From Atractiella rhizophila (Eukaryota): a stretch of 39,884 bases of DNA. Position numbers and translations under genes: made by a program. Within the stretch, counting starts at the first letter, position 1. The number at the start of each line of letters is the position of its first letter. Under the pieces are notes generated by a model. That model did not search any database, had not been told where the DNA came from, and was given only the letters and a program-made list of their open reading frames with translations. Of this stretch, positions 8,558 to 39,884 are shown piece after piece. The DNA lies in contig MU271474.1 in assembly GCA_021432655.1 (NCBI GenBank), positions 18,018 to 57,901 on the forward strand, read 5' to 3'.

Positions 8558-9483
8558 TAGGGATGGCTATCGGAGTCGAATCGTACCAGCTACGCCGGGT
8601 CCGATGGCCAGTCATGTATCGATCGAAGACAAAAATGGACCACGACTTACGATTCGATACGAGTACGGCTCCCAAGGCGTATCGAATCGCCAGCGTGTGG
8701 ATTTTACGACTACGATACGATACACGATTCCATGCGCACGTTTTTGGGGGAACGGCACGAATAGTAAGGTGTTCACATCACTCTCAGCTGCATGTGCTTA
8801 CAGTCTTCAGCCCCATGGCTGCTGTCCGCCGCCAGCATATAAATCCTCACTATCTTCTCCCCGTTGACGTCGCGCCACCATGGCAACACTGGACATTCTC
8901 GGGCTAGGAAAAAGGTCAAGGACTTCAGTGGATATTGCGAAGAGGAACAACGAGGATGGGACTGCACTTAGCCAGTCCAAGAAGCGAAAGGATGAGGAGT
9001 CTGAGTGGGTCTTCTCTCCTTACGATGGACGCTTGTTGATTGACATTGCACACAGACACCAAAAGATAGCGGAGTTCGAAGCCATGCAAGAAGTCGATCA
9101 TTACATGAAGCAGCCACAACTCCCTGCTTCAGTCATATCTTCGAATTGCACAAGGTTCAATCGACTGCCTCGCTGCCTGCATGTTCTCGGATGGCAAGAG
9201 ACATACTCTCCATCCCTGGTTTGTCCTCTGCCTCTCCTCTGCTATGCTTAGATTTGATAACTTCGAAGGGTGCGCTGTTGGTGTGGAACAGGTATTTTCA
9301 GGTGGAAGGGACACAATCAGCATCTGAAGACATCGTTTAAAGCCCTCCACTATTCGTCTGCTGATCATTACGAAGGCTAAGCTTAGGTTAGATCGAACAA
9401 GAAAGAGGATGGAGCTGTTGAGGAAGCTGGAAGAAGCTGAAAAGATGCACGAGATGCAGGTTCTGGCCGAAGCACAGAGCTGA
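8558..9483 (+). mobile_element. Internally deleted hAT transposon relic: left terminus plus degenerate C-terminal dimerisation domain
   Basis: TAGGGATGGC at 8558 resembles hAT TIRs and is followed by CGAT/ATCG-rich subterminal repeats. Spliced reading gives SRMARDILSIPG-CAVGVEQVFSGGRDTISI*RHRLKPSTIR (hAT dimerisation motif) with in-frame TGA at 9325-9327. Confidence 0.8.
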
Positions 9484-9520
9484 ATTTTGTCTTTACCATA
9501 ACCATCTTGTATTTCATTTC

Positions 9521-12500
9521 TTGACCGTCTGTCCATGGCTTCTCCACGATTACAAGGTCTTGGAAAAACCAATTGGGATCCGTGGAGCTTGGAGATCTAG
9601 GGGACAGGCTGTTGGAAAAGGGAACCTTAAGATCATATTTTTCCTCGAGGACGGGAAGACGAGCAAAGGAATTATTCGAAACGTTTACTACGCTCCTGGA
9701 CTCGGCGTCAATCTCATCTCCTCAAAAGTTCTCATGCAAAATGGAGTAGTCTTCGGAAACGATACGGAACGAGTTTATCTACACACTTCGAATGGAGAAA
9801 GGTTCGGGATCGCCCATATTGGTGATACCCTAATCACACTCCAGGCGAGTTATCTACCTGCATCAGCACCCCTCTCCAACGAACACACAACCGTTCCTCA
9901 TACGTCTTTTATCGCAGTGCCTCTTCGTATATGGCATCAACGTCTAGCACACCCCAGCAACGAACGACTGCGACTAGCGATTAAAAATGAAATTGTGTCT
10001 CCCTCACATGTACAGGATAGCTGCAATGCATCCCTTTTAGACTTGACATGTGCAAGAGGGAAAGCTACGTACGGAAGGAGTAAGGGACCTGCGAAGATTA
10101 GAGACCATAGACCGGGGAGGACGTTGGGATACGATACATGGGGTCCATCGACAGTTGCGAGTATACAAGGATTCCGATACGTTTTTGGCGTCGTCGATGA
10201 GGCGTCCAGGTATATGATTGTAGGAGGAATGAAGCTCAAATCCGAGGCACCATCAATCTTGGACGGGGTCAGAGCAGCTATCAAAAGGGACCTTGACGTA
10301 GACGTCCGTAAGATACACCACGACCAAGCCATGGAATTCATGTCGCTTGCAATGAAAAATTGGTGTGACAAACATCAAATTTCAAACATGAAGACCATGC
10401 TGTATGCACACGATCAGGGCGGAATGTGGGAGCGACAATGGTATACTCCTTTCAACATGGTTCGATGTCTCCTCCTCGACTCCGGACTCCCTTTGTACCT
10501 TTGGTATGAGGCGTTGAAAGTTGCCGTCCATATGAAGAACATTATGCCTACGAAAGCGAACGAAAGAAATCAATCACCCTACGAAAAGTTTCATGGAAGA
10601 AAGCCTGATATGACGCACATCAGGGTATTTGGTTGTCTCGCTGCAGTTACCATCATGCCTGAGCAAAGGGATTCGAAGCTATTACCCCGAGCAAAGCTGA
10701 TGTATTTCGTTGGATATGTCCCTGACGGTTACGGATGGCAATTCTGGGATCCCGCAAGGCGGACAATAGTAGAAGGCAAATCAGCTGGATTCTTCGAAAA
10801 TAAGTTCTACTCAGAAAGAGGCTATCAAGAAACAGAGAGAATACGGAACCTGGAGCCTGACGATTTCTTTGACATGCTGATACCACGGAGCGATAAGGAA
10901 GAGGGAGAGAAAGGGCGGATAGAGGGAGAGCTGGGTGGACAACGTATAAACACAACCGAGATGGAAGTGGACGATGTTCAAACATCAAGTCCTGTGGTAC
11001 CTGATACACCGGAATCTCCTACACTGTCAAGAAAGCACTTAGACAAAACTCAAGTGGCAGTAGAACAAGGGGGAGAACCAGCTACCACCGATACGTTAGA
11101 ACCTCCAGAAGGGGACCCCTCGTTTGTCCAAGATCGAGTTGCGGAAATCGAAGCATCCATACGGAAGGCGAGGGCCCACGAAGAAGAAATTGCGAGATTC
11201 TCCCCTCAACGACAACAACGGCTGGGGAGAGGAATACGTCGTGCAGGGCAGAATAGGTGGGATTACAAGAAACTTCACGAGCGAGGTCTATACTACGCTC
11301 AAGTGTACGGAAATGATGAAGTCGTCGCACCTGCAAGGGAACTGGCGGCGGAAGTGAAACGAAACCCATCAGTCTACAAGGTTACGCTTGAGGACGATAC
11401 GGACAATTATGAAGACCACGAAGTCTACTGGACAGGCAGCATCGATGAACCAACGTTCAAACAAGCGATCGCTGGACCTGACCGCGATAAGTGGTTAGCT
11501 GCGATGGTGGTGGAGATGGCAGCGCTCGAAGAGCGAGGTCTATACTACGCTCAAGTGTACGGAAATGATGAAGTCGTCGCACCTGCAAGGGAACTGGCGG
11601 CGGAAGTGAAACGAAACCCATCAGTCTACAAGGTTACGCTTGAGGACGATACGGACAATTATGAAGACCACGAAGTCTACTGGACAGGCAGCATCGATGA
11701 ACCAACGTTCAAACAAGCAATCGCTGGACCTGACCGCGATAAGTGGTTAGCTGCGATGGTGGCGGAGATGGCAGCGCTCGAGCTAATGGGGACGTGGAAA
11801 GGTGGATTAAAGGAGTTGCCTGAGGGGAGAAAGGCTTTAGGAGTTAAATGGGTGCTTACGGTAAAGCGTGATCCGAGAGGGGAGGTGATAAAGTACAAAG
11901 CACGCCTTGTGGTACGAGGGGATCAGCAAAAGGCAGGCCTGGACTACACGGAGACTTGGGCACCAACCGTGCGGACTGCATCTGTCAGAGCAGTACTGTC
12001 CATCTCAGCCCAAAAAGGGTGGGTCCGGCGACAATTCGACGTCAGCAACGCTTTCCTGAATGGCGATCTCGAAGAACAAGTATTCGTTAAACAGCCACCC
12101 GGTTTCATCGACGAGGAACGCCCGAAAGGCGTTTACGAATTAGGGAAGGCGCTCTATGGGTTGTGTCAGGCAGGGCGACAATGGTGGAAGAAGATTCATG
12201 GAGTACTTACTCAGTTGGGTTTCGTACGGTCTACCGCGGACGAAGGCGTGTATATTCTGCATAAGGACGGCAACACCCTCATCCTCTGTCTCCACGTTGA
12301 TGATGGATTAGTCGTTGGAAACTCACATGCCCTTATGGACTCCATCTTTCAAAAACTAGGCGAATTCTTCTCCTTAAGGGCTGGAACAGCATCCGTGTTC
12401 TTGGGAATCCAGATCGAGGCAGAAGATGGATCCAGTATGGTCAAGATACACCAAGGAGGCTACGCTAGGAAAATAGTGCAGCGATACCTGGGGAACAACG

Positions 12501-13057
12501 TATCGCCAGTTCAGATGCCATGCGACTCCAACAAACGACTGTCCCCCGAAATGTCACCCAAATCTGCTGAAGAACGAGAAAGCATGCAACATATACCTTA
12601 CCGAGAGGCCGTTGGAGCACTCATCTACCTTACGACATGCACTCGCCCTGATATCGCTTACGCCGTCTGCGAGGTTGCGCGTTACTGCGATAACCCGGGA
12701 CTAGACCACTGGCATGCAGTCAAACGTATCTTTCGCTATGTCTCTGGCAGTCTAGATCACGGATTAGTATACGACGGATACATCTTCCCGCAACCATCAC
12801 TGGATGCGTTCGTCGATGCGGACCATGCAGCGGACCCTACGACGCGACGCTCTGTCTCTGGCGTACTCTTCCGGAATGCTGGTGCGGCGATCTCATGGAT
12901 ATCAAAACGACAGCTAAGCGTGGCTGTCTCCTCGGCGGAAGCCGAGTACATCGCCATGTCCATTGCCACTCGGGAGGCGGTATGGCTGCGCAGGCTGTTC
13001 TCCGACCTGGGATTTCCGCAAGTGCAGCCGATACTGATACGGGGCGATAATCAGGGA
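9521..13057 (+). mobile_element. Ty1/Copia pol fragment (protease C-terminal part, GAG-pre-integrase, integrase, RT, partial RNase H); no gag or LTR
   Basis: NVYYAPGLGVNLIS, WHQRLAH, DTWGP/VDEASR/DQAMEF/MWER integrase motifs, KYKARLVVRG, DVSNAFLNG, ALYGLCQAGRQW, HVDD, TRPDIAYAV, DADHA, SSAEAEY, GDNQ. Integrase precedes RT, as in Copia. Confidence 0.96.
11279..11782 (+). repeat. 252-bp in-frame tandem duplication inside Copia pol
   Basis: GAGCGAGGTCTATACTAC... starts at 11279 and again at 11531. The 84-aa block ERGLYYAQ...EMAAL is repeated. Confidence 0.95.
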
Positions 13058-14129
13058 AAGATCGAGTTGCGGAAATCGAAGCATCCATACGGAAGGCGAG
13101 GGCCCACGAAGAAGAAATTGCGAGATTCTCCCCTCAACGACAACAACGGCTGGGGAGAGGAATACGTCGCGCAGGGCAGAATAGGTGGGATTACAAGAAA
13201 CTTCATGAGCGAGGTCTATACTACGCTCAAGTGTACGGAAATGATGAAGTCGTCGCACCTGCAAGGGAACTGGCGGCAGAAGTGAAACGAAACCCATCAG
13301 TCTACAAGGTTACGCTTGAGGACGATACGAACAATTATGAAGACCACGAAGTCTATTGGACAGGCAGCATCGATGAACCAACGTTCAAACAAGCAATCGC
13401 TGGACCTGACCGCGATAAGTGGTTAGCTGCGATGGTGGCAGAGATGGCGGCGCTCGAGTTAATGGGGACGTGGAAAGGTGGATTGAAGGAGTTGCCTGAG
13501 GGGAGAAAGGCTTTAGGAGTTAAATGGGTGCTTACGGTAAAGCGTGACCCGAGAGGGGAGGTGATAAAGTACAAAGCACGCCTGGTGGTACGAGGGGATC
13601 AGTAAAAGGCAGGCCTGGACTACACGGAGACTTGGGCACCAACCGTGCGGACTGCATCTGTCAGAGCAGTACCATCTCAGCCCAAAAAGGGTGGGTCCGG
13701 CAACAATTCGACGTCAGCAACGCTTTCCTGAATGGCGATCTCGAAGAACAAGTATTCGTTAAACAGCCACCCGGTTTCATCGACGAGGAACGCCCGAAAG
13801 GCGTCTACGAATTAGGGAAGGCGCTCTATGGGTTGTGCCAGGCAGGGCGACAATGGTGGAAGAAGATCCATGGAGTACTTACCCAGTTGGGTTTCGTACG
13901 GTCTACCGCGGACGAAGGCGTGTATATTCTGCATGAGGACGGCAACACCCTCATCCTCTGCCTCCACGTTGATGATGGATTAGTCGTTGGAAACTCACAT
14001 GCCCTTATGGACTCCATCTTTCAAAAACTGGGCGAATTCTTCTCCTTAAGGGCTGGAACAGCATCCGTGTTCTTGGGAATCCAGATTGAGGCAGAAGATG
14101 GATCCAGTATGGTCAAGATACACCAAGGA
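13058..14129 (+). mobile_element. Second, degenerate copy of the same Copia pol segment (matches 11130-12457 without the 252-bp duplication)
   Basis: Begins AAGATCGAGTTGCGG as at 11130. Has a CAA>TAA stop at 13603-13605 and a 4-bp deletion near 13671. Identity ends at 14129. Confidence 0.95.
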
Positions 14130-15321
14130 TAGCTACATGCAAGTTCACCACGGCATTGGAAATTCCGGTACAGCATTAAAACCACACTATGCCAGCATTT
14201 GCCTTCTCCCTTCACGACATGGGCGAACCTCGCATGTTTAAGGGACTCGGAGTTCACGTTGGGGCTCAGCGCAACTTTGCAAAGCAAGCTGTGCCGTCAA
14301 GTAGGTGCTAAAGAGACTAGATGATGCATTCTAGGCTAACGGGGCTGGAAGCTTTGGTTGTCTGGATGGAGATGCTGTTAGTCGTCGCCTGCGTTCGAAC
14401 GTGGAAACTTAATCCTCGTTAACTCAGAACCGTCAGCCGCACCTCCAACAAAAGGCGGTTTGGATGTCAGTTATTGTTTAGTCAATCGTTCCCAAGCTAC
14501 GTGTCGACCTCAAACCAGTTGCAATGTTTCTTTTCAGTGGCGCTGCAACGGCCTGGCACTTGAGTAAACAACATCGTGATACCATAACATGGCAGCCCTG
14601 TTCCTAGTGCAGTTGGGAGTGACATGCAACACAAAGGAAGCATTGAAGTTGAACAAAGAGGCGAGTTGCTGAGGAGGCGCATGACAGTGACGCTATCTGC
14701 GTGCCTTGCAAGTGTACAATGAGTGCTCCGTCTCGACGAACATATGCAATCGTTTATCATTTAATGCATTTATGGAGTAAAATAACACAAAGGGGCAATG
14801 AAGAAGTGGTTAGTATAATCGGACACTGGTGTACACATGAGTAAAAGCTCGTGGATCAAAAGGCAGACAAGGACCTGGAAGTTACTCAGGGTGACCGAGG
14901 TGAAGGGACAAGGCGATTGTCCTAGTCGGAGGTTGGTGATTCATAGATGCTCGTGTCGTTAAGTCTTGCAAGAGAGCGGGGGTACTCCACTTAAGGAGAG
15001 CTTTGCCCGTTCGGTTAGTGAGGTTGAAGCGAAATCAGTACCAAAGTGGCGTTTGCCTGGTTTTCCTCCCAGTCTCATGGCATACTAGCTATACAGAACT
15101 TGTCCCATCCAATGGCCGAAGAATTGAAGTTTGGATCGATGCTTCTAAATCGGCCTGGCAAGACGGTAAGATTGAGTAAAGAAAAAAGACGGGGTGGCTA
15201 CAATGGAAAGACCCTTGTGTGCAATTTTGGTCACCAAAAAAGTGCTCCGAGACGTCTAAGTGCACACCAAACTGTTAAAAGATTGTTTTTGCATTGATAA
15301 CTCTGTCAAGCGAAAATAGGT

Positions 15322-17262: not shown

Positions 17263-18232
17263 CTACTAACAGTACTTTGGGGTTCAACCCCACCTCTTTC
17301 AGGAATGAGACCCAGGCTGAATCCTTGCCTCCTGGCTGCCCAGGGTACCACCCTACCTCAGTCAGGAACAAGATCCTGGCTACATACATCCTTGCCTCTT
17401 AGGCACCCAGGGTACAACGACCCTGACGCCGTTGGGAACAGGATCCTGCCTACATCCTTGCCTCCTCGCTGCCCAGCACGTGTAGAGGTGAAGATGGGAC
17501 TGAGAACCAATATTTCATGAAACTCAGCCAGGCAACTGCTTAAGAGTGATTATGAGCATGGACAGATTGATACCCTGCTAAACGTAGTGCAGGCATTGGA
17601 TGTAACTGTGAGCAATCGAGGGCCGCATTGTGTAGAATCAATTTGGTGTATACATGAACTTGAAAGTATGATCAAGATCAAGATAATGGAGCCCTTGAAA
17701 ATAGTAATACAATTAAAATAAAACATGTCAAGAATGATTTAAAAAATGTGACCAATTAAAGAGCTTGTTTTGAATCATTATGGTCAAATATGAGGATAAA
17801 CAGATGATCAATAATGGTTTTAGTGCCAATGAACATGATCATTGCTGAAACATTTTACAGGGCGACAGGTGCATGTTACGTTATTCTAAACCCTTTGTCA
17901 CTCTTACATCTACTAGTAATTGTAACCTGTGAGCGAGATTGTAAAACATGCAATGATGAGGGTTATTTGAAGGAACATTGTTTCAGGTGAAGCATATGGA
18001 GCTAGAGCACCTCTGTGGGAGTGATATATTATTTATATGGAAATTGCATGTATATATGAACTTTGTCGCCACATCCTCATTAGCCACCTTTGGTGATCAG
18101 CTAGAGATTAGAATGTTTGGAGCAAAATTGCACTTTCCACAGCCTCTACACCTGTGTCGATAACCTATCGACTGGTGACGTTTTGAGTGAAATTGCACTT
18201 TCCACACCCCCTCGACACCTGTGTCGATAGGT
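17263..18232. mobile_element. Non-coding repeat family A, internally deleted copy
   Basis: Starts CTACTAACAGTACTTT as at 27723. Has ~63-bp tandem units, then an AT-rich core aligning by eye with 28476-29110, then ~67-bp units containing GTCGATAACCTATCGAC. Confidence 0.85.
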
Positions 18233-21200: not shown

Positions 21201-21312
21201 GATTGCAACCAGCCCACGCGCTTTCTGCTTTGTTCAAGTTTATAACACAATAAAAGTCCCCGTTATTCAACATTGCTTCCGCAATCGTAATCCAATCTCT
21301 TGTTTCGCCAAT

Positions 21313-24300
21313 ATGTCTACGAATCATGTCAAAGTGTTCAAAGTTCCTGAAAATGTCAAGGAAGCGAATCCGCTGGGCCTACGGATTCCCTGCATCGACA
21401 ATGGCGGCGTTGCCACTTTCTCAGCTCCGTACATGCTCGAACCCATCATGCGTCAAACCGCACATCTTCTCAACGTACCAGACGGCGAAGAGCTTCGACC
21501 ATGCGACGTCTTTGATCTCATTTGTGGAACTTCTACTGGCGGATGGATCGCACTTATGCTCGGGAGGCTGGGAATGACTGTTCGTCAATGCATTGCGGCA
21601 TATGAAGAGATCGTGCAAAACGGATTTCTAGAAGAGGATTCAATCTCCAGCAGCAAGTACGTGTACTCTCCGAAGAGGCTGGAAGAGACTTTGATCTCCG
21701 TCATCCAGCGACACACGCCCCCTCTCGAAGGCCCTGCGGAGACACTTCCTATGAAGGACCCTTCTGTGAAGGAAAGATGTAGGACGTTTGTCCTCTCTAC
21801 CTATGAGGCCACTGTTATCGTTTCCACGCAGATGCGCACCTACGATATCTCTGCTCCTGCCGCTCTATCCGCTTGTCCATACTTCGTCTGGCAAGCCGCA
21901 AGAGCTACCTCAGCCTGTCCTCCCTTCTTTCCTACTATGAGCGAGGATTCTACCGGCTACATCCAGCTGGGAGACAACAACCCTGCAGCAGTAGCCTTCG
22001 ACGAGGCTTTGCGAATTTGGGGACGCAGCAGCGAGATTGCCTGTCTTGTGTCTCTTGGTCCGGGCGTTGCACGGACTGTGAAGCTGGGCCACACTCGGGA
22101 TGATATCGAACATGCGTTGAAAGCGATAATCGCGGATTGCTCAAAGGTTTCGAATGCAGTGAAGGTGAAGATGCAAGATGGTGGGACGGGTCATTGCTAT
22201 CATCGATTCTCGGTTGATACATTCATAGAATTCAAATGGGGGGACTGGGAGCGAAAGGACGACATTGTAGGCTGCGCCAAGGCTTACATGGAAGCAATGA
22301 ATCATGAAGTGGCTGCCGCGGCTAGGTCGCTAGTGCAAGGTATTCTCCGTTACTGTGTATTGGTGCATGCTGATTTGCCCTTGTTCAGGCTATAAGGAAC
22401 GCATTGCTGTCCACAGGAAGCTTCCGCTACCTGATCCGGGAGCTTGTTACGGAAGAGGTGACGAAGTTACGGAGGCGCTCAACTGCATCCTCACTGACCG
22501 GAAGCATCTTGCAATAATCGGTGGCGCTGGCAACGGGAAGTCCACTGTAGCTCTACAAGTCCTGCATGCCAAGCAAGTCAAAGATGCTTTCACAACCACA
22601 GTGGAAGGTACGAGGCAAGATCTTCGGTTCTGGGCTCGATGCGATGCTTTCACTACATTTTCATCCCTCTCTACGAGCCTTTGCAGGGAGGTCTTCGGAA
22701 TAGCTCCTCTACCTGGCGAAAGTGACCTTGCTGCTATCGCACGATATTTTAGCGGCCATAAATGTCTCCTTGTGTTGGACAATTTTGAGACCCCTGCTGA
22801 GTCCGACAAGGAAAACCTGCAGCCATTCTTTCAAGCTCTTCTTTCTGCCAACGATCGGTTGGGTTCCATTCTGATTGTGGCGCACCGAGGACATCAAATC
22901 TACCGCGTGAACATCGCAGGAGGGAAGTTTCAAAAGTTGGTGATCCACGGCCTCAGCTACCCTGCTGCACTGGAATTCTTCAGGGAGGCGTACACCGGAG
23001 AGGAAGATTGCACAGAAGAGCTATTGAAGACTGTTTTCACCACATTGGATTATCACGCCTTGTCCATCAAGCTATTCGTTCTTCGTGCCAACGCAGAATC
23101 ACCAAAGACGGTCTCGATCTTGTTGCAGGAGTGGGAGGCTGTGAAGATAGGTGTGCTGTGGGACGAAGACAGTGACGAGACCCAAACTCTTGCAAAGTCG
23201 ATATCTTTTTCACTCAATTCACCTCGTCTTAAAATGCGCGAGGATATGTGCATGTTTATTCTTGCTCTCTTATCCTGGACCCCTCAAGGCCTTCTGGACA
23301 GTGACATTCTGGCTGTTGCCAGCAAGGCTAGTCTTCCTGCTCTGGAGCGACCTTATGTGATCATTAATGCGATTTTGTCCGTCGGACTTGCCGAGAATGC
23401 ATACGATACCCTGGCAGACTCAACACGATTTCGTATGCTGGCACCTATTCGTGAACACATTAATCACTCGGTAGTGCACTCTCTTCCTCCTTTCAGCAAT
23501 GCCGTTGCTTCATCCCTCCAGCCCATAACGGACGGTCTCATCGATATAGCTCGGGAAAATGTTCGACGGTATAAAGGTGACGGTCAACGGATAGAGTTGT
23601 TGACTTTCCGCAACAATTATCCAAACCTTGAATATGTTCTTCTAGCTGCTTTGGAACATCTGCAAGACCCGAGAATTACGGTCCATTTTCTAGTGGAAAT
23701 CTGGCAGTTTCTGTACCAGCAGTCCCTCCTCTCAATCAAATTACTCCAGCAGGCTCAGTCCATCGCGAAATCTATAAGTTCTCCGCTGGAATGTACAGCT
23801 ATATTGACCAAGGCTCTGGGGCTCGCATTCAGACATCAGGGGACTCTAGAACAAGCCTTGACACAATTTGAGGAGGCAAAGCTGCTCTATGTGACAATGG
23901 AAGATCGGCAGGGGCAAGCCCACTGCATTCGGAGCATGGGGGAGATCGAGCAGCATCGCGGGCGGATGGAGGAAGCGCTGAAACGAGTCGAGGAGGCGAA
24001 GGAGCTGTATCTGAAGGTGGAAGATCAGCATGGGCAAGCCCACTGCATTTACAGCATGGGGCAGATCGAGCAGCATCGCGGGTGGATGGAGGAAGTGCTG
24101 AAACGATTCGAGGAGGCAAAGGAGCTGTATCTGAAGGTGGAAGATCAGCTGGGGCAAGCTCACTGCATTTACAGCATAGGGGAGATCGAGCAGTATCGCC
24201 GGCAGATGGAGGAAGCACAGAAACGATTCGAGGAGGCGAAGGAGCTGTATCTGAAGGTGGAATATCAGCCAGGGCAAGCTCACTGCATTTACAGCATGGG

Positions 24301-25414
24301 GAAGATCGAGCAGCATCACGGGCGGATGGTGGAAGCGCTGAAACGATTCGAGGAGGCGAAGGAGCTGCATCTGAAGGTGGAAGATCAGCTGGGGCAAGCT
24401 CACTGCATTCGGAGCATGGGGGAGATAGCGCAGCGTAGCGCCTGGATGGAGGAAGCGCTGAAACGATTCGAGGAGGCGAAGGAGCTGTATCTGAAGGTGG
24501 AATATCAGCCAGGGCAAGCTGACTGCATTTACAGCATGGGGGAGATCGAGCAGCATCGCGGGCGGATGGAGGAAGCGCTGAAACGATTCGAGAAGGCGAA
24601 GGAGCTCTACCTGAGGGTTGAAGATCAGCTGGGGCAAGCTGACTGCATTCGAAGCATGGGGGAGATTGAGCAGCATAGGGGGCAGATGGAGGAAGCGCTT
24701 AAACAATTCGAGGAGGCAAAGGAGCTGTATCTGAAGGAGGAAGATCAGCTGGGGCAAGCCCACTGCATTCGGAGCATGGGGGAGATTGAGCAGCATCGTG
24801 GGCGAACGGAGGAAGCGCTGAAACGATTCGAGGAGGCAAAAGAGCTGTATGTGACAATGGAAGATCGGCAGGGGCAAGCCCACTGCATTCGGAGCATGGG
24901 GGAGATCGAGCAGCATTGCGGGCAGATGGAGGAAGCGCTGAAACTAGTCGAGAAGGCGAAGGAGCTGTATCTAAAGGTGGAAGATCAGCAGGGGCAAGCT
25001 CACTGCATTCGGAACATGGGGAAGATCGAGCAGTGTCGCGGGCGTATGGAGGAAGCGCTGAAACGATTCGAGGAGGCGAAGGAGCTCTACCTGAGGGTGG
25101 AAGATGTTGGCGGTCAACTCAACTGTCTTACAGGCATGAGTTCCGTTTACACTCAAGACAAGCAGGGGATATCCAAGGCGATCAAGCTTCGCGAGGAAGC
25201 AGTCAATTTGAGTGGGACCGTCGGTGGCTACTACGAAGCTGTCAGCAGAAAGAACCTGGCCGAACTCCTCTTCCAATCGTCCCAGTTCCTCCGTGCGACG
25301 CAGGAAACCAATCTCGCCCGTCAGATTTACGCAGATTGCTCTGCCAGCTCCGATGTTGATGGTTGTGACACTCTGCTGCGGACAATTCAGCTCATTGAGA
25401 GTTTTCCTGGTTAA
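21313..25414 (+). CDS. NLR-like protein: patatin-like phospholipase, STAND (NB-ARC-like) NTPase and TPR array; exons 21313-22339 and 22389-25414, 1350 aa
   Basis: Patatin motifs CIDNGGV, FDLICGTSTGG, ARATSACP, NNP. Walker A GGAGNGKST, Walker B LLVLDNFE. Ten 40-aa TPR-like repeats. A 49-nt GT-AG intron (22340-22388, phase 1) fuses the two ORFs with no internal stop. Confidence 0.92.
23870..25105 (+). repeat. Array of ten 120-bp near-identical coding repeats (TPR) plus a partial eleventh
   Basis: GAGGAGGC(A/G)AAGGAGCTGTAT...GGGCAAGC(C/T)CACTGCATT recurs at exactly 120-nt spacing. Confidence 0.97.
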
Positions 25415-27722: not shown

Positions 27723-29260
27723 CTACTAACAGTACTTTAGGGTTCAACCCTGCCTCTTTCAGGAATGAAATCCAGGCTGAATCCTTGCCTCCTGGGCACC
27801 TAGGGTACAACCCTGCCTCTGTCAGGAACAGGATCCTGGCTGGATCCTTGCCTCCTGGCTGCCTAGGGTACAACTCTACCTCTATCAAGAACAAGATCCT
27901 GGCTACATCCTTGCCTCTTAGGCACCCAGGGTACGACCCTGATGCTATCAGGAACAGGATCCCACCTACATCCTTGCCTCCTCGCCGCCTAGGGTACAAC
28001 CCTGTGTGTCTTACAGACAGGATCCTGGCTATATCCTTGCCTCCTAGGCACCCAAGGTGCGACCCTGCCCCAATAAAAACAGCATCACTACAAAACTGTT
28101 GTCTCTTAGTCGACCAGGGTAGAACCCTGCCATAGATAGGAATAACAATCCAGTCAAAATGTCATGTACATATAAACACTCGCAGGCACAGGCAATGTCC
28201 TCTCTAAGACATCTTAAAACACATATATTGAAATCCTTGCTTCATTGGAGAGCTTTGGTTCATACTTGGCATATATGTCCAATGAAACAAAGTACATTCA
28301 AAGTTGCAAAATAAATTTATAGCAGTGTAGAAATCTGTTCTCTGTACGTTATTAACGATAAGTGCAATTTTCGCAAAACTGCACCAGATCGATAGGTTAT
28401 TGACACCAGGTATAGAGGGGTCTCAGGGGTGCAATTTTGTTGAAAGTGGTCCATGTCGATAGGTTATCGACACCTCGTGTAGAGGGGTCTGAGAACCAAA
28501 GTTTCATGAAACGTGGCCAGGCAGCCGCTAAAGATTGGCTACAAACATGGATAGATTGATACCCTGCTGAAAGTAGTGCATGCATTGGATGTATACTTTC
28601 GCAAGCGAGGGGCTGAATTGTGTAGAATCAATTTGGGGTATATACAAACTTGAATGTATGAAAAATGATCAAGATGATGCAGCCGTTTAATGGTAATACC
28701 ATTAAAATGAAAACATGTTAAGAATGATTGAACAAATGTGAGATATTAAAGAGCTTGTTTTGAATCATTATGGTCAAACATGACGATAAACAGATGATCA
28801 ATAATGGTTTTAGTGCTAATGAACAAGATCATTGCTGAAACTTTCAGGAAGACAGGCGCATGTTACACTATTCTGAACGCCTTGTAATTTTTACATCTGT
28901 TAGTAATTGTAACATAAGTGTGCGCGAGATTGTAAAACGTGTAATGATGAGGGTGGTTTGCAGGAGCATTTTTTCAGGTGAAGCATATGGAGCTATAGCA
29001 CCTCTGTGGGAGTGATATATCATTCATATGGAAATTGCATGTATATATGAACTTTGTCGCCACGTCCTCATTAGCCACCTTTGGTGATGAGCAAGAGATT
29101 AGAATGTTTGGAGCAAAATTGCGCTGTCCACACCCCCTCTACACCAGTGTCGATAACCTATCGACTGGGGACGTTTTGAGCGAAATTGCACTTTCTACAC
29201 CCCCTCTACACCAGTGTCGATAACCTATTGACTGGGGACGTTTTCAACAAAATTGCCCTC
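27723..29260. mobile_element. Non-coding repeat family A, longer copy: terminal hairpin, 63-bp tandem array, AT-rich core flanked by inverted 67-bp modules
   Basis: 63-bp units start at 27738, 27801, 27864, 27927, 27990 and 28053. Inverted modules lie at ~28360-28490 and ~29112-29257. Homologous to 17263-18232. Confidence 0.85.
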
Positions 29261-29262
29261 CA

Positions 29263-29807
29263 ATGACATCTTGCATGGTCAACTCTTCTTTAGTTGCCAT
29301 CAAAGTCCCGGCTAAGCTCCCCCAATCCTCCACGAGGTTGAAAATGAGAACGTCCGTTATATCGGTATCTTCTAGTTTAAGCCCGATTGATTTGAGATTA
29401 GAAGCACTGGAGGAAACTTCTTAAATGTAAGCTTCAACCAGTTTTGTGGAATCATGCTTGGCGTTGTAGAACCGACGTTTCAGCATGATTCTGTTTGCTC
29501 GGCTGTTCTTCTCATATTTCTCCTTCAAAGCCTTCCATGCAGCCCCTCCAGTTGTGCAATCTCGGATGTAATTGTATTGGGACGGATCAACACTCAATCC
29601 GATGATGGTGAGTCCCAATTCATTACTTTCTTTCCAAGTCCTCAGTTTCTTATCCTCTGGCAAAGGCTCCTCCACCACTCCACTCGCTTCATCCTAGCAA
29701 CTCCCTCTCTTCAGGACCAAAGTAACAGCAAATTTCCAGTCGTTGTAGTTGCTCTCCGTAAGCTTGGGCACCAACTGAATTAGCGTGTTGAGATTTGAGG
29801 TGGACAT
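29263..29807 (-). pseudogene. Degenerate Copia gag (Retrotran_gag_2-like)
   Basis: MSTSNLNTLIQLVPKLTESNYNDWKFAV..., IGLSVDPSQYNYIRDCTTGGAAWKALKEKY, LKSIGLKLEDTDITDVLIFNL. Has a frameshift and stops, and is truncated at the family A repeat. Confidence 0.85.
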
Positions 29808-29855: not shown

Positions 29856-30033
29856 GCTCTCGCTACCAATTGATGAAATTACAAGTTCATAGTATTACAA
29901 TAAAGAATCTAGTGCTTTTATACCTTTACAGTAGGTGGCAAACATTGGTAAGCATGGAAGTCCAGAAGGTTCAAGAAGAACAGCCACAGAACAGGTGGCA
30001 ATGAATGACGCTCAACGCGCCAAAATCCTGACA
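29856..30033 (-). mobile_element. Probable 5' LTR (29871-30033, TGTCA...CATCA) and PBS (29856-29868) of the minus-strand Copia relic
   Basis: Minus strand reads ...TTTCATCA-AT-TGGTAGCGAGAGC, about 50 nt upstream of the gag ATG. The outer LTR boundary is inferred from TGTCA only. Confidence 0.65.
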
Positions 30034-30659
30034 ATAGCTTGATAAGCGGCCCTACACTTCAGTGTGGCTAGCAAAAGCTGGTTCCTGTCTCTCGTTTAAG
30101 CTCTCATTTATTGATTGAGCCTCTTAGTTCTCGCTCTAGTCGAGCTAAGGGAACTCGCTTTTTGCAGTAGAGTCTCACACTAGCTGGCGACCTCCGGAAG
30201 GCGATGGTCGACCCCCGCTTCTGCGACTTGGTTTCTTCGTGGCTTGCGGGACAGTCCCCTCCTACTTATTCGATGGCTTCACTCACAGCTCAAATGGTCA
30301 ATTGAGACAGGCAATGCTTGCTCGTGACATCTGATTCTGAATCATCCACTCTTCGAACCATCGGGAAAGCTGCAGGAATGCGTACCACAGAAGATGACCC
30401 TCCTTCACTCCTTGAGAAGTGCTCTTCATTGCCATGTCGCTGCTGAGACTTCATGAGATTCACTTGAAGAATTTCGTTTGCATTCCAGGGTGCCGAATCT
30501 GCGGTGCATTGATGTTCCGACAACGACAGTCTTGTCGTCTTAGCTGCTGTTCATTCTGAAGCATCGTGTCGTAAGCGATGAGATCGTAGCGGTCAGAGGG
30601 TCGGGGAAGGTGCTCCTCCAAGTCTTGTCGCTTCGGCCATTTCCTCCTTTGCCACGGAT

Positions 30660-31790
30660 CAAAAGAGCGAAGTGATGCAGAGAACATGGCCCAATAAGCA
30701 ATGAAGGATGTTCTTTCTCAAGATCTGCTCGTAAATTTACCATTGTAGAAGGTGAATCCGTAAACAGAGAAGAAACAGCATCCCAACTAACTCCAGCTCT
30801 AACAATTGATTCATTAACAAACTGTTGCAGACAGGAAGTAGTATGATGGATATCACTGAGATCTTGGAGCTCAAGGATAATAGGATCATCCCCTTTACCA
30901 TTGCAAGCAATAGGTAAATGGATCTGGGGAGGATGGTGTAGTGGGCTAAGCACCAGTCCGGGCCAGCCCAAACGACGGTTTTTATGTGGCTGTGGGTTCG
31001 AATCCCACCCTCCCCACCCTGCTTGACCCACCAAGCAACCGCCCTGGCTTGACCTGGGACACTGACACTGACGTCAGTAGCTGAGGGTGAAAACCCCTCC
31101 GGACACTGTCGGTACCACTGTGGACGCACAGTACAGGGGCGTGGTGCTGTAATGGTGCCAAGCCTCCCCTTGTTTCTCGGTGAACGCGTTTCCAATGTGC
31201 ATGAGATCCGCAGCCTTCACACAAGGAGATAGGATACCATTTAGCCGAAGCTTAGAGGCATGGCGATCACATGTGAGGTTTTAGTGGGTATTGTTCATAG
31301 AATGGAGCCCCACACTGTTCCTTTGCCGATCATGGCGGGTTCGTGCGTAAAAAGCATTTCCTCATCATAAAAAAAAAAAAACAATAGGTAAATGGATCTC
31401 TTCTGCTGATCTTCCCATCCGTCAAGACCAAGACTGTTGTTGTCGGCTGTCTTTAGAATCTCTATGTTTGTCTTTTGAATGTCAGCATAGAGCTCTGTTA
31501 ACAGATCTGTTCTGAATGCTGTTTCTTCAAGCATGCTATAGTTTGGTTGAATACCGTTCACCCATCGGTGAAAGAATGTTATTAACAAGTGAAAATGATG
31601 CTGAAGTGTCTATCATTGCAAGGAGCAATCTCTTGTCATGCATCCAGGCAACAGATTTTGGAAAGGGGTCAATGACAAGAAGGCTGCCCCAAACAGAAGG
31701 AGTGCCTTTTGCTTTTTTAGAAAGTGAACGGGGTGACTTTGATTGAGATCCTTTGAAGACAATTGCTGTGCAGAATCTGGCAAAGATAGA
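30660..31790 (-). mobile_element. hAT-superfamily (DUF659-like) transposase relic interrupted by a SINE
   Basis: SLGLDGWEDQQKRSIYLL (first catalytic Asp), FTDSPSTM (second Asp) and PCSLHHFALL (CxxH). Reading is continuous across the removed SINE apart from a frameshift. Confidence 0.8.
30926..31381 (+). mobile_element. tRNA-derived SINE, 456 bp, with poly(A) tail and 18-bp TSD
   Basis: TSD CAATAGGTAAATGGATCT at 30908-30925 and 31382-31399. A box TGGTGTAGTGG, B box GGTTCGAATCC, acceptor stem GGGGAGG/CCTCCCC, T stem GTGGG/CCCAC. A13 at 31369-31381. Confidence 0.93.
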
Positions 31791-32849
31791 AAGACAAATG
31801 GACACTGGAGAGAGGATGGAGTTAGGAACAGGTCACAGTATCTTCGTCAACACGACAAATATCTATGGGTGCTAGACACGCCTGACTGTTCGTCCTCTAC
31901 TCGAACTTCCTGATTGATGATTTGATACAATGATGTCATTGGCTGGTCTTCACGGTGTATTGGATGAAGAAGGCGATGATGATGGAGGGGCACATCTGGA
32001 TGGTGCGGTGGATCATGTTGCGCAGAATGATCTTGAACAGCTTTTTCAACGAAACAAAGAATACAGTCAGCAAGTTCAAGTGTAAAGAGAAGGAGCATAC
32101 ACATACTGTATCCTTTGAGGATAAGAGGTCCAAAGATGGTGCTACTTTAACGCGTTTAGTCAGCTTCCCTGATGCCCTGATGGAGAAATGGAAGAAAGAC
32201 AGCTCGCCTTTTGAGATGGGATTAAGGAAGTAATAAAGTGCAGCAGAACATTCGAGAGAACCAAAGCCAAGCCTTAAACACCTACAGCGATAAATCAGCA
32301 TCCCTTTTTTCTTTCCTTCCTCTGAGGAAGGGGGGGAAAAGTTAGACTAACCTCCCAGAACTGTGTCCATTTCTATTCCTTAGGCCATGTCTTTGTGTTC
32401 TTTACGCTCAGTCTCTCAATCACCACAATCTTCTCTTCGTAGGCCAAGAACTTTGTGCCCCGTACACCAACTACATCCACATCAAACGGATCAAATCGAT
32501 GTGTGTTTGAAGGGAGAGAAATTAGGGGAGATGGAAAAGAGAGTGAGACAAACGAGGGAGAGACGGGCATGACAAACATCAAGGGGAAAGAGCGAGGGCA
32601 TAGAAGACATCCACAGAGGAGGACGATGATTTGGTTTGTACTTTGTCATTCGTAAAAGCGATCAGCTTCATGTTCCCTTTCGCTGAGGAAGAGAGGCGGC
32701 AATACAGTGATGAAATGTATCGGAATGGACGTGTCTCAGTCCGAATGAAAGCAGTGAACCTGCTCACAAAGAAGGCATCCAGATCCTTCCTTCAATATAG
32801 GAGGACAATACACTTAAAATATTATTCATGATTCCTGTATAATAAAGAA

Positions 32850-34100
32850 TGAGTTCAATGGAACATGTAGAATAATCGAAGAGGAAGAGGAAGAAAAAGG
32901 CAGCACCGAACATGCAATACCACAATGCGGTCCTCAATGGCAGTTGTCTCCTCCTTCAAAAAATCGAACGAGTGCCTAAGATCGTCTTGGCTGTGTTCTG
33001 CTTGACCCCTCTCAGGAATCATATCAATGGATAAAGGCAGCACAGAGCACCAAAACGTAGTGACTCTCCTTTCGTGACCGCTTTTGCAATGCCCTATGCA
33101 CACAAATCACAACCACACTTGACTATTTAATGATGCGCTATACCTTGCTATTCCAGACATTGAATTGCCCCAAGCCCTGATCCATGGTTCGAGAAGCGGT
33201 TGTAGGAAAACCGGACGTGCACAGAAACTGACACCAGGGCTTTATGGACCGGACCAGTATTGAAATGGGTGTATGTGACACGCTCCAAAACCTGCAAGAA
33301 TGTCAGCTAGTGACCTGGGACAGGAAGAAAGCACGAAGCGGACCTTTGCGCATCTTGAATTGGCACATCAACTTGTGCTTATAGCAGTATATTGATCAAT
33401 GTGTGCTGAAAGTAATGTTAGATCTGCAGCTGCATAAAGAGGAAGGAGAAATGATAATTACAAAGGCAAACTGCAGACCGCAGGCGAGCCGGAAAGAGCC
33501 TTGTAACGTATGAGTCGAAGATGTTTCGTGAGGCGGAGAATTTCTCGCACAGGATGAAAGGCGTTTCTGATTTCTTTCTCTCCTGTGTTGTAAGGTCCAC
33601 CTATGCGCTCTGGAGATAGCTATATTGAGCGCTTTGGCAGTAAAGCAACATTCAGGCCTGATAAGATAGAAATGCTTCCAATCCGGAGGAGAGCATGGAC
33701 AAAGTCATGATGGAACTAGGAAAGAAGCGATCTCTGAAGGCGGATGAGTGTCGCTGTTCTCCATCTTTACAGCAATGTCCATCACAAAAGTAACAGGCTA
33801 TTACAGTGAGGAACGTCAACCTGCCAAGTGAGGCAGACTTACAGCATTGTTTCTCGTTCTTAACGTAAACACCTTCTTCTACCAATCCACAATTTTTATC
33901 CCCCCCAACTTCGTCATTTCCTTCACCCCCCTTGCCCGCCCCATCCATCCATCGTACCTTCTCCTTTTCTAGTACCCTCGCATCCACTTCAACTTGAACT
34001 ACCCACCATCCTTCAACTTTAATCGTGACCGCCGTGTCGTTCCTGTTAGGACGTGAAATGCCCAGAATCAGCCTACTCATGTCCCCGTATCTAGCAAACA
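32850..34100 (-). other. Possible intron-rich gene or gene relic of unknown function
   Basis: Several minus-strand intron-like segments (e.g. GTCCGC...GCTGACATTCTTGCAG near 33291-33343) between short open frames. No domain recognised. Confidence 0.25.
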
Positions 34101-38634: not shown

Positions 38635-38987
38635 CCCTGCAGTGCAAGTCCCATTGCATTTGTAGCTCACATTTGCAGGTGAAGTTATTTCTCTTAAGTA
38701 CAAATGAAATGTATTCTAATCGCTTTTGTGGCTCGCATTTGTAGTGCTTACAGATCCGTATCTCATCAATATCCCCCGCAGATCACCAAACCAGATCTTG
38801 TTTAGAATAATGTCGTTGTGGTCGTAGAGCTCAGAAGAAATAAGTTAGAAAGCGGAAAGAAGCTGTGGGAAGTGAAGAAGCCGAAATGGTGACGAACTTC
38901 GAGCTCCAAAAAAGGCAAGCACCGCTTCCAGACAAGGAAGGTGTTGCCGCATTTTGTGTGAGCGTGAGCTCAATCGACCACAATACA

Positions 38988-39884
38988 ATGTCGAATCAGA
39001 TCGAAACCTACAGGTTGTTTTTTCAACTGGTTCAGCCCGATCCGCAGACAAATCGTATCGTCGGCACAGCGAGCTCTGTCACAATTTCTTCCGGTCAGTT
39101 GGTCGAAGACTTGGAGAAGGAGATTCGTGCCAACATTCGCGAAAGGCACCCTGCAATGTGCAGTCTGGACGATTTCGTATTGTGGGCGCTTCAACCAATG
39201 TTGCCCAGCAAGGAGCAAGCCTTTCTGAAGACGATCAAGTTCCCCTCCGAAAGATTGAAACAACTCGACCCTACTTTTCCGCTATCGGATTATTGGGAAA
39301 AACCCCCCGCAAATAGACACCTACATGTTGTGGTTGAGTTAGGTTTGCCTTCTCAAGAACGTCCACCCTCTCGTAAGGATTCCTTGGTGATCCTTCTTCC
39401 ATCTGATCTGTTTGGTAGCCTGGCATCATCACGGTAGTCTGGATCAGTATCAATCCCGCGCACGTATCAAAGCATTGACTAAAGGATCATTCTCTCCCCA
39501 CTCGCTTCTCGAACAAAATCACATCTTCCAGGTCGCTGTCCCTCCCACCAGGCCTCCCAACTACCAAGAGGATCCTAACCTCGCAACCCTCCGCCAAGCC
39601 AAGGCCACTTTGGCCCAACAGTTCCAGCTTCCTCCAGACCCTGACGCTGCTACACTCGCAATCGGAACGTCGCTTCAAAATGATTTTTTTGGCGGTACTG
39701 TCAAGAAAGGCCGAAGAGCAACAAAGGCCGAGCTAAGCCATTATCATCATGTTTCCGCCGTCGAGGTACCTATGGAGCGATTTCTGGATAACAAACAGGC
39801 TTATTTCAACTGGACCTACCTGATGCCTGTCGCGAGCGAGCTTTCTCGCCAGAGATACGGACTGATCAAAGTGTCCGAATTCGT
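38988..39884 (+). CDS. Crinkler (CRN)-like protein with N-terminal ubiquitin-like domain; continues beyond window
   Basis: YRLFFQLV...VTISSGQLVEDLEKEI...FVLWAL...LDPTFPLSDYWEKPPANRHLHVVV matches the CRN N-terminal pattern (LxLW, LxP..LS..F/W, HVxV). A downstream frame from ~39490 is open to the edge. Confidence 0.8.

Follow-up and report, generated by a model that had tools for sequence, protein, structure and literature searches.

The fungal tRNA-derived SINEs (SINE2) described so far include Mg-SINE of Magnaporthe (472 bp), SINE2-1_BG of Blumeria and AfuSINE2 of Aspergillus fumigatus (PMC5063351, PMC3747384). All three have ascomycete hosts, and a table of 2013 gives two fungal SINEs with an identified partner, both from ascomycetes (PMC3747384). 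SINEs have also been reported by automated counts from rust fungi (under 0.2%; PMC12210899) and from two of five Boletales genomes (PMC5689174), so that the class is not new to fungi, basidiomycetes included. Stringent SINE/LINE pairs with a 3' stem-loop are known from maize (ZmSINE2/LINE1-1_ZM) and Chlamydomonas (SINEX-3_CR/L1-1_CR) (PMC3472496, PMC3747384), and other SINEs have middle bodies derived from LINEs (RTE, Vingi; PMC5786205). The rust fungi harbour Helenus, a group of tRNA-bearing TRIMs with LTRs, PBS, PPT and 5-bp target-site duplications (TSDs) (PMC10886601).

Here we describe a 456-nt element at positions 30926-31381 of a window of 39,884 nt (the whole stretch of DNA analysed, from contig MU271474.1), which is flanked on both sides by exact 18-nt duplications. 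Its host, Atractiella rhizophila, is a root endophyte of the Pucciniomycotina. The element is a SINE2, with a tRNA head carrying Pol III boxes, a short non-coding sequence, and interspersed copies with variable TSDs and an A tail. Likened by description only, it resembles Mg-SINE, SINE2-1_BG and AfuSINE2 in its tRNA head with boxes, unrelated body, size, TSDs, low copy number and apparently LINE-related tail, but its host is a basidiomycete; the partners of the ascomycete SINEs are MgL and Tad1-type LINEs, whereas the likely partner here is a poly(A) APE-RT-CCHC clade apart from the abundant LINE groups of the host. With the maize and Chlamydomonas pairs it appears to have in common a 3' end that is shared with LINEs, structured and followed by poly(A), and compensatory stem changes, but the fold is here a predicted multi-stem structure of ~93 nt found in two distant LINE lineages. 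Like the SINEs with RTE or Vingi bodies it is a composite of head, body and apparently LINE-derived tail; unlike theirs, its middle body had no match to the 5' regions of five partner-clade LINEs. Helenus is likewise a short non-autonomous retroelement of Pucciniomycotina with a tRNA-derived Pol III promoter, but the SINE lacks LTRs, PBS, PPT and 5-bp TSDs, has an A tail at its end and is flanked by TSDs of 8-18 nt.

The window also contains a Copia-type pol ORF in which DNA of the RT region is duplicated internally (9422-14132), a patatin, NACHT and TPR-repeat gene of the fungal NLR type with 120-nt tandem repeats (21202-25414), and an ORF with a Crinkler N-terminal domain above the cut-off (38844-39437). 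A MITE-like element of ~900 nt with terminal inverted arms of ~45 nt and 67-nt subterminal repeats (28360-29290) is partially repeated 11 kb upstream (17488-18229).

Structure and insertion site of the element

The element and its surroundings comprise the following features (window positions, strand).

30285-30925, minus: decayed hAT-type transposase fragment, downstream of the insert in transposase direction, with the DUF659 region and a ~1.25-kb deletion at 30653
30908-30925, plus: left TSD, 18 nt, exact repeat; single at the empty site in 7/7 hAT paralogs
30926-31016, plus: head derived from tRNA-Leu, with intact acceptor, D and T stems and a degenerate anticodon arm
30934-30944, plus: Pol III A box, read from the sequence
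30979-30983, plus: T5 run inside the head, possible Pol III terminator; allele in 4/7 heads
30995-31005, plus: Pol III B box, within a T arm that is the same in host tRNA-Leu genes
31017-31236, plus: middle body, without match to the 5' regions of five partner-clade LINEs or to Rfam
31237-31265, plus: motif A, also present where the ORF ends in LINEs of the APE-RT-CCHC clade
31273-31365, plus: module B, a predicted RNA fold of several stems with a closing helix of 6 bp, shared with LINE 3' regions
31369-31381, plus: A13 tail
31382-31399, plus: right TSD, 18 nt, exact repeat
31382-31791, minus: decayed hAT-type transposase fragment, upstream of the insert in transposase direction

A preliminary description of this DNA had read a complete tRNA-derived SINE with A and B boxes, perfect acceptor, D and T stems, a body of ~360 nt, an A13 tail and an 18-bp TSD splitting the codons RSIYLL, and in all these points the present analysis agrees with it. 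The A box was assigned with the Pol III box consensus, both boxes lie within the head, the three stems pair perfectly over 7, 4 and 5 bp, respectively, and the body measures 352 nt (31017-31368). The 18-mer occurs only twice in the window, as the two TSDs, and the repeat is not extendable; RSIYLL is encoded on both sides of the insert (minus strand), and the paralogs are in frame across the site. At 456 nt the element lies within the 100-600 nt usual for a SINE2, and it is non-coding in that no forward-strand ORF of at least 100 aa overlaps it, while the reverse-strand frames continue into hAT DNA. No terminal repeats were seen, and the whole element and the head fold no better than shuffled sequences (z 0.18 and -0.97). 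A search of the window against Rfam gave no family for the SINE body or module, the only matches being sub-threshold ones of the tRNA clan.

The flanks of the SINE are part of a multi-copy hAT-type element, and the piece in the window (30285-31791) is 90-95% identical to the three paralogs compared. In all seven paralogous hAT copies examined the 18-mer is present once and the insert is absent, and the 18-nt repeat is therefore a true TSD. An insertion into a hAT transposase had been claimed; the flanks are indeed of hAT type, but of the transposase only a decayed fragment is left, which contains stops and, besides the internal stretch missing at 30653, has lost 1 nt immediately past the TSD. 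DUF659, which we take to be a marker of hAT transposases, scored above the cut-off in one paralog (E 3e-12) and below it in the window (E 0.002), and two paralog pieces searched against Pfam for a BED finger and a C-terminal dimerisation domain gave no match. The SINE lies antisense to the hAT fragment. Because it differs from the majority sequence of its family by 0.9% and the hAT piece is decayed, the SINE probably arrived after the decay; an effect on the host is not expected of an insert in a decayed fragment, and the copy is probably a neutral passenger. An empty-site joint in sequencing run X1 carries paralog letters, so that insertion polymorphism was not demonstrated.

The SINE family and its head

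The assembly searched comprises 51.5 Mb in 1998 contigs. A search with the element gave 20 matches (17/17 candidates), which excludes a single-copy sequence. Five insertions have TSDs of their own and A-rich tails (C295, 18 nt; C1140, 13 nt; C697, 8 nt; C29, 12 nt; C84, 13 nt); the copy on C84 is interrupted and partly inverted, that on C1422 ends at the contig end, and that on C1103 is a chimera. Seven young near-full or partial copies (C84 left aside) differ from the majority sequence by 0.9-4.4%, the window copy standing at the lower limit; for the two pieces on C84 the distances are 1.7% and 0%. Relics that lack the head stand at 11% (C120 and C1327, which are one site) and at 22-23% (C603), C-to-T and G-to-A changes making up about half or more of these differences. 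No pair of independent copies is identical. The family is small and old, with recent insertions; the young tRNA-derived SINE family proposed earlier is supported, as a multi-copy one, by the five bounded, A-tailed insertions and by the low divergence of the window copy. Searches of the text of openly available papers listed none on this family or on SINEs of Atractiella; the family is possibly undescribed.

RTE-dependent SINEs have a T stretch ~10 nt upstream of the TSD, a TSD starting with T or A, and a microsatellite tail (PMC13295347). At the five insertion sites a run of three T within 16 nt upstream was found once, three of the five TSDs start with C, and the tails are A runs, features that do not fit an RTE-dependent SINE. 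Neither an L1-type nor an RTE-type target signature was seen at these sites; a G precedes the TSD at four of the five, too few for a claim.

Three loci have a structure of their own. The SINE copy at G000:C84:32323-33796 (L009, L156) is broken by a solo-LTR-like insert of ~489 nt with TG/CA ends and a short duplication; the 3' part of the copy, which bears the A tail and TSD, lies inverted ~540 nt away. At G000:C1103:4079-4531 (L004), the core and left flank are those of C1140 and the tail and right flank are identical to those of C697; this is an assembly mis-join or a recombinant of two SINE copies. Finally, G000:C5:157148-157395 and C3:3013-3260 (L017-L020) consist of SINE nt 1-50, 112 nt like window 29871-29982, and SINE nt 144-232, with a 2-kb copy of window 31791-33832 near the site on C5; these structures look like a scrambled derivative of the window locus.

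The parent tRNA, whose identification had been suggested as a check, was sought by alignment and by a T-arm pattern. ARAGORN returned the head as tRNA-??? with a non-canonical anticodon arm. The host tRNA set held 37 distinct sequences from 50 loci (63 of 1911 candidates were scored, and several isotypes are missing), and the best four alignments of the head among these 37 were all to tRNA-Leu. The 17-nt T arm, with at most one mismatch, matched the genome 24 times, in the eight SINE heads found genome-wide and in 16 tRNA-Leu genes (reversed control, 0); ARAGORN named 11 of the latter, and the other five are the same sequences as named Leu genes. On both comparisons the head is derived from tRNA-Leu, in a register slipped by one base with the perfect stems kept. 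At the tRNA loci L065, L069, L073, L074 and L081 of G000, the ARAGORN anticodon looks shifted by an unusual intron position, Ala- or Val-like bodies being called Ser, for example.

Among 47 host tRNA genes, the longest T run downstream is a T5 in 22 and shorter in only three. Transcription of the window copy may therefore end early at its T5, a candidate terminator; as the allele is present in four of seven heads, it was copied and is no absolute stop. Contigs from sequencing runs cannot give the start, end, strand or level of a transcript and are taken as hints only: run X5 (assembled contigs, run type unspecified) has a contig over 30939-31124 at a depth of 294 versus 5.5 on hAT DNA, X4 (soil RNA) has one contig on the SINE tail and one on hAT DNA, and X3 has one low-depth contig.

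The tail and its LINE counterparts

A match of the 3' end to LINE ends had also been suggested as a check. With the last 115 nt of the SINE, blastn found no LINE in the host genome, all 11 matches being SINE copies. The host has at least four groups of LINEs; among the ends of four groups read, two are CAA or CAT arrays, one is C-rich, and only that of the C3 family is poly(A). Fungal non-LTR clades were reportedly surveyed by Novikova in 2009. The C3 LINE (G000:C3:37283-41330) encodes APE, RT and a CCHC-like motif in one long frame broken by a frameshift and a stop; it is the sole long copy, with three shorter relatives, and no intact copy of its clade was found in the host. A truncated C3-family copy of 170 nt, with a TSD of 10 nt, starts at motif A. 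Five contigs binned with bacteria, and evidently contaminants of eukaryotic origin, group with the C3 LINE in a tree of 19 rows (support 100/99); the LINEs with RNase H are separate from this clade (100/100). The ESM Atlas gave no named family for the C-terminus of the clade.

Motif A stands at the end of the ORF in the C3 LINE and in four of the five contigs, and in the same four it is followed in the 3' UTR by the core of module B, once with a compensatory change in helix 2; the fifth contig has neither module core nor poly(A). The order of the SINE tail (motif A, module B, poly(A)) is thus that of the C3 clade, while direct sequence similarity between SINE and LINE is weak. With a matrix for motif A built from these four unrelated LINE contigs alone, the SINE site at 31243 ranked first of 79,698 window positions, and none of 76 contexts of RNase H LINEs attained its score; the pattern for motif A had been drawn up with knowledge of the SINE and missed two of seven LINE loci. 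The C3 LINE end has the same fold topology as the SINE module (z -4.5). Over the 283 kb of 40 RT/LINE loci of the host, a model built from LINEs only gave a single match, of 13.2 bits (E 0.25-0.88), which lies at the C3 LINE's 3' end; an unrelated flank scored 13.5. The covariance model matched three of the five contigs weakly (12-17 bits), near the noise of three other matches. The C3 end fails the module matrices. Pairwise tests of the SINE tail against 11 LINE ends were not above controls; the SINE and the C3 end were equalled by 5 of 300 shuffles at best (controls, 5/300 and 0/300). Two motifs were found in the order of the partner clade, but no host LINE of high identity, by blastn or pairwise. 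Local alignment with low gap costs was rejected, as it did not discriminate a partner LINE.

Taken on these sequence features, the clade of the C3 LINE, with poly(A) and a single APE-RT-CCHC ORF, is the likely partner of the SINE. Because the SINE tail has diverged from C3 in sequence, its donor was probably another member of the clade and not the C3 family itself.

Some further observations concern LINEs. LINE-encoding contigs occur inside bacterial MAGs (L334-L337, L347 and others), apparently through contamination with eukaryotic DNA. Three C3-family copies of different lengths on G000:C3, C128 and C708 (L177, L180, L179) have a common 3' flank, owing to a target-site preference within a repeat or to segmental duplication. 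The fourth host LINE group (G000:C140, C270, C547; L157, L158, L160) has a long branch and short, C-rich, telomere-like ends.

Scanning metagenomes with a pattern of 23 bases taken from the tail gave at least 120 loci, and 81 contexts were taken from 80 of them; none had a tRNA within 500 nt upstream of the pattern. At L236, the one locus tested, the frame upstream is the last part of a LINE protein of the APE-RT-RNase H type, whose named relatives are from Lactarius, Russula, Suillus and Trametes, and the 40 upstream frames examined mostly resemble this protein. In these RNase H LINEs module B does not lie at the terminus but overlaps the final codons of ORF2. Further paired stretches are kept between module B and poly(A) (L199-L278), and the whole 3' UTR may be one larger fold. 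No match to the module was found in viral contigs, and Rfam gave no family for it in 10 LINE loci. A pattern used on the host genome was discarded, as it lacked one base, did not recover the SINE copies and gave three unrelated matches.

In a five-helix structure of 30 hand-picked modules out of 65 distinct ones, 27 cells showed two-sided changes versus 13.1 in shuffles (0/500), mostly in helix 4, a count that is inflated by related rows and in which helices 1 and 2 were fixed by the search pattern. For the SINE module alone, helices 1, 2, 4 and 5 are predicted (z -2.0); the 133-nt SINE tail folds no better than shuffles (z -0.66 and 0.27).

By its sequence, module B stands nearer to the LINEs with RNase H than to the C3 clade, matching the former at 67-80% in 15 of the 81 contexts. 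Matrices trained on bases outside the pattern, with block boundaries set after SINE and LINEs had both been seen, scored the SINE at 41.4 versus a null maximum of 15.1 (20,000 draws), and a covariance model from LINE rows only gave seven SINE copies 32-48 bits (the oldest two, 10-11). These values favour a tail taken from, and a SINE moved by, a poly(A) LINE with RNase H (APE-RT-RNase H, zf-RVT) of the Agaricomycetes kind that is now lost or unassembled. We regard this origin as unlikely: two protein queries found no such clade in the host (the best match was the C3 LINE, at 26%), motif A is absent from all 76 contexts, and poly(A) follows 127-258 nt after the motif start (55 of 81 contexts) whereas the SINE ends 3 nt after module B. 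Moreover, the closeness is inflated by contexts picked with a SINE-derived pattern, and an nhmmer profile of the tail only did not find the SINE.

Mode of transposition and significance

Hallmarks of LINE-mediated target-primed reverse transcription had been noted in the preliminary description, and are present as TSDs of 8-18 nt with A tails at five sites and as the empty site in the hAT paralogs. We are nearly certain that the element is a SINE moved in this way. That a tRNA-Leu-headed SINE was moved by a LINE of the poly(A), single-ORF APE-RT-CCHC clade is, as a whole statement, the account that we consider probable. The SINE/LINE pathway is an established one (PMC3747384). Following it, Pol III would transcribe a source copy from the A and B boxes through the body and the A tail, and a C3-clade LINE protein would bind the 3' ~130 nt (motif A, the folded module B and the A tail), nick the target and then copy the SINE RNA. 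Staggered nicks would yield the TSDs of 8-18 nt, and the window copy would have landed antisense in an already decaying hAT fragment.

The motifs of the tail might instead be relics, and the SINE might have been moved through relaxed recognition of its A tail by any active LINE of the host, such as the abundant CAA- and CAT-ending groups. These groups are far more numerous in the assembly, no intact copy of the partner clade was found there, and a short CAT-like run closes the window copy and some of the others; yet all SINE tails are A-rich and never CAA or CAT arrays, the LINEs ending in such arrays have no match to the module, and module B is intact in the young copies and folds as predicted. 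Recognition of this relaxed kind seems to us rather improbable. That the element is no SINE, being a chance-copied tRNA pseudogene, a host Pol III ncRNA gene or a tRNA-bearing mini LTR element of the Helenus type, would suit the perfect head stems one base out of the tRNA-Leu register and the low copy number, but is very hard to reconcile with several independent insertions with A tails and a LINE-type tail, and with the lack of terminal repeats where Helenus has LTRs and 5-bp TSDs (PMC10886601).

The novel lead is the shared LINE module, not the class of SINE. Segments of similar appearance are presumably present in animal RTE-related SINEs, and this likeness lowers the odds that the module is undescribed. 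Its letters were not found in the open literature, where text matches were titles and abstracts on other topics, nor in one supplement of PMC5786205. We tentatively put forward, with the balance of probability somewhat against it, that an undescribed structured RNA module in the 3' region of at least two distant LINE lineages (RT ~26% identical) serves as the template-choice signal of their RTs, overlapping the last ORF2 codons in one of them, and that the SINE is a natural test substrate of 456 nt, from a basidiomycete and paired with a LINE clade outside Tad.

A curated basidiomycete SINE family with empty sites and a candidate partner clade is a clean added example. Should distant LINE lineages have module B in common as a recognition signal, it would bear on how LINE proteins choose the RNA that they copy, and on the question of whether a single SINE is able to change partners through structure.
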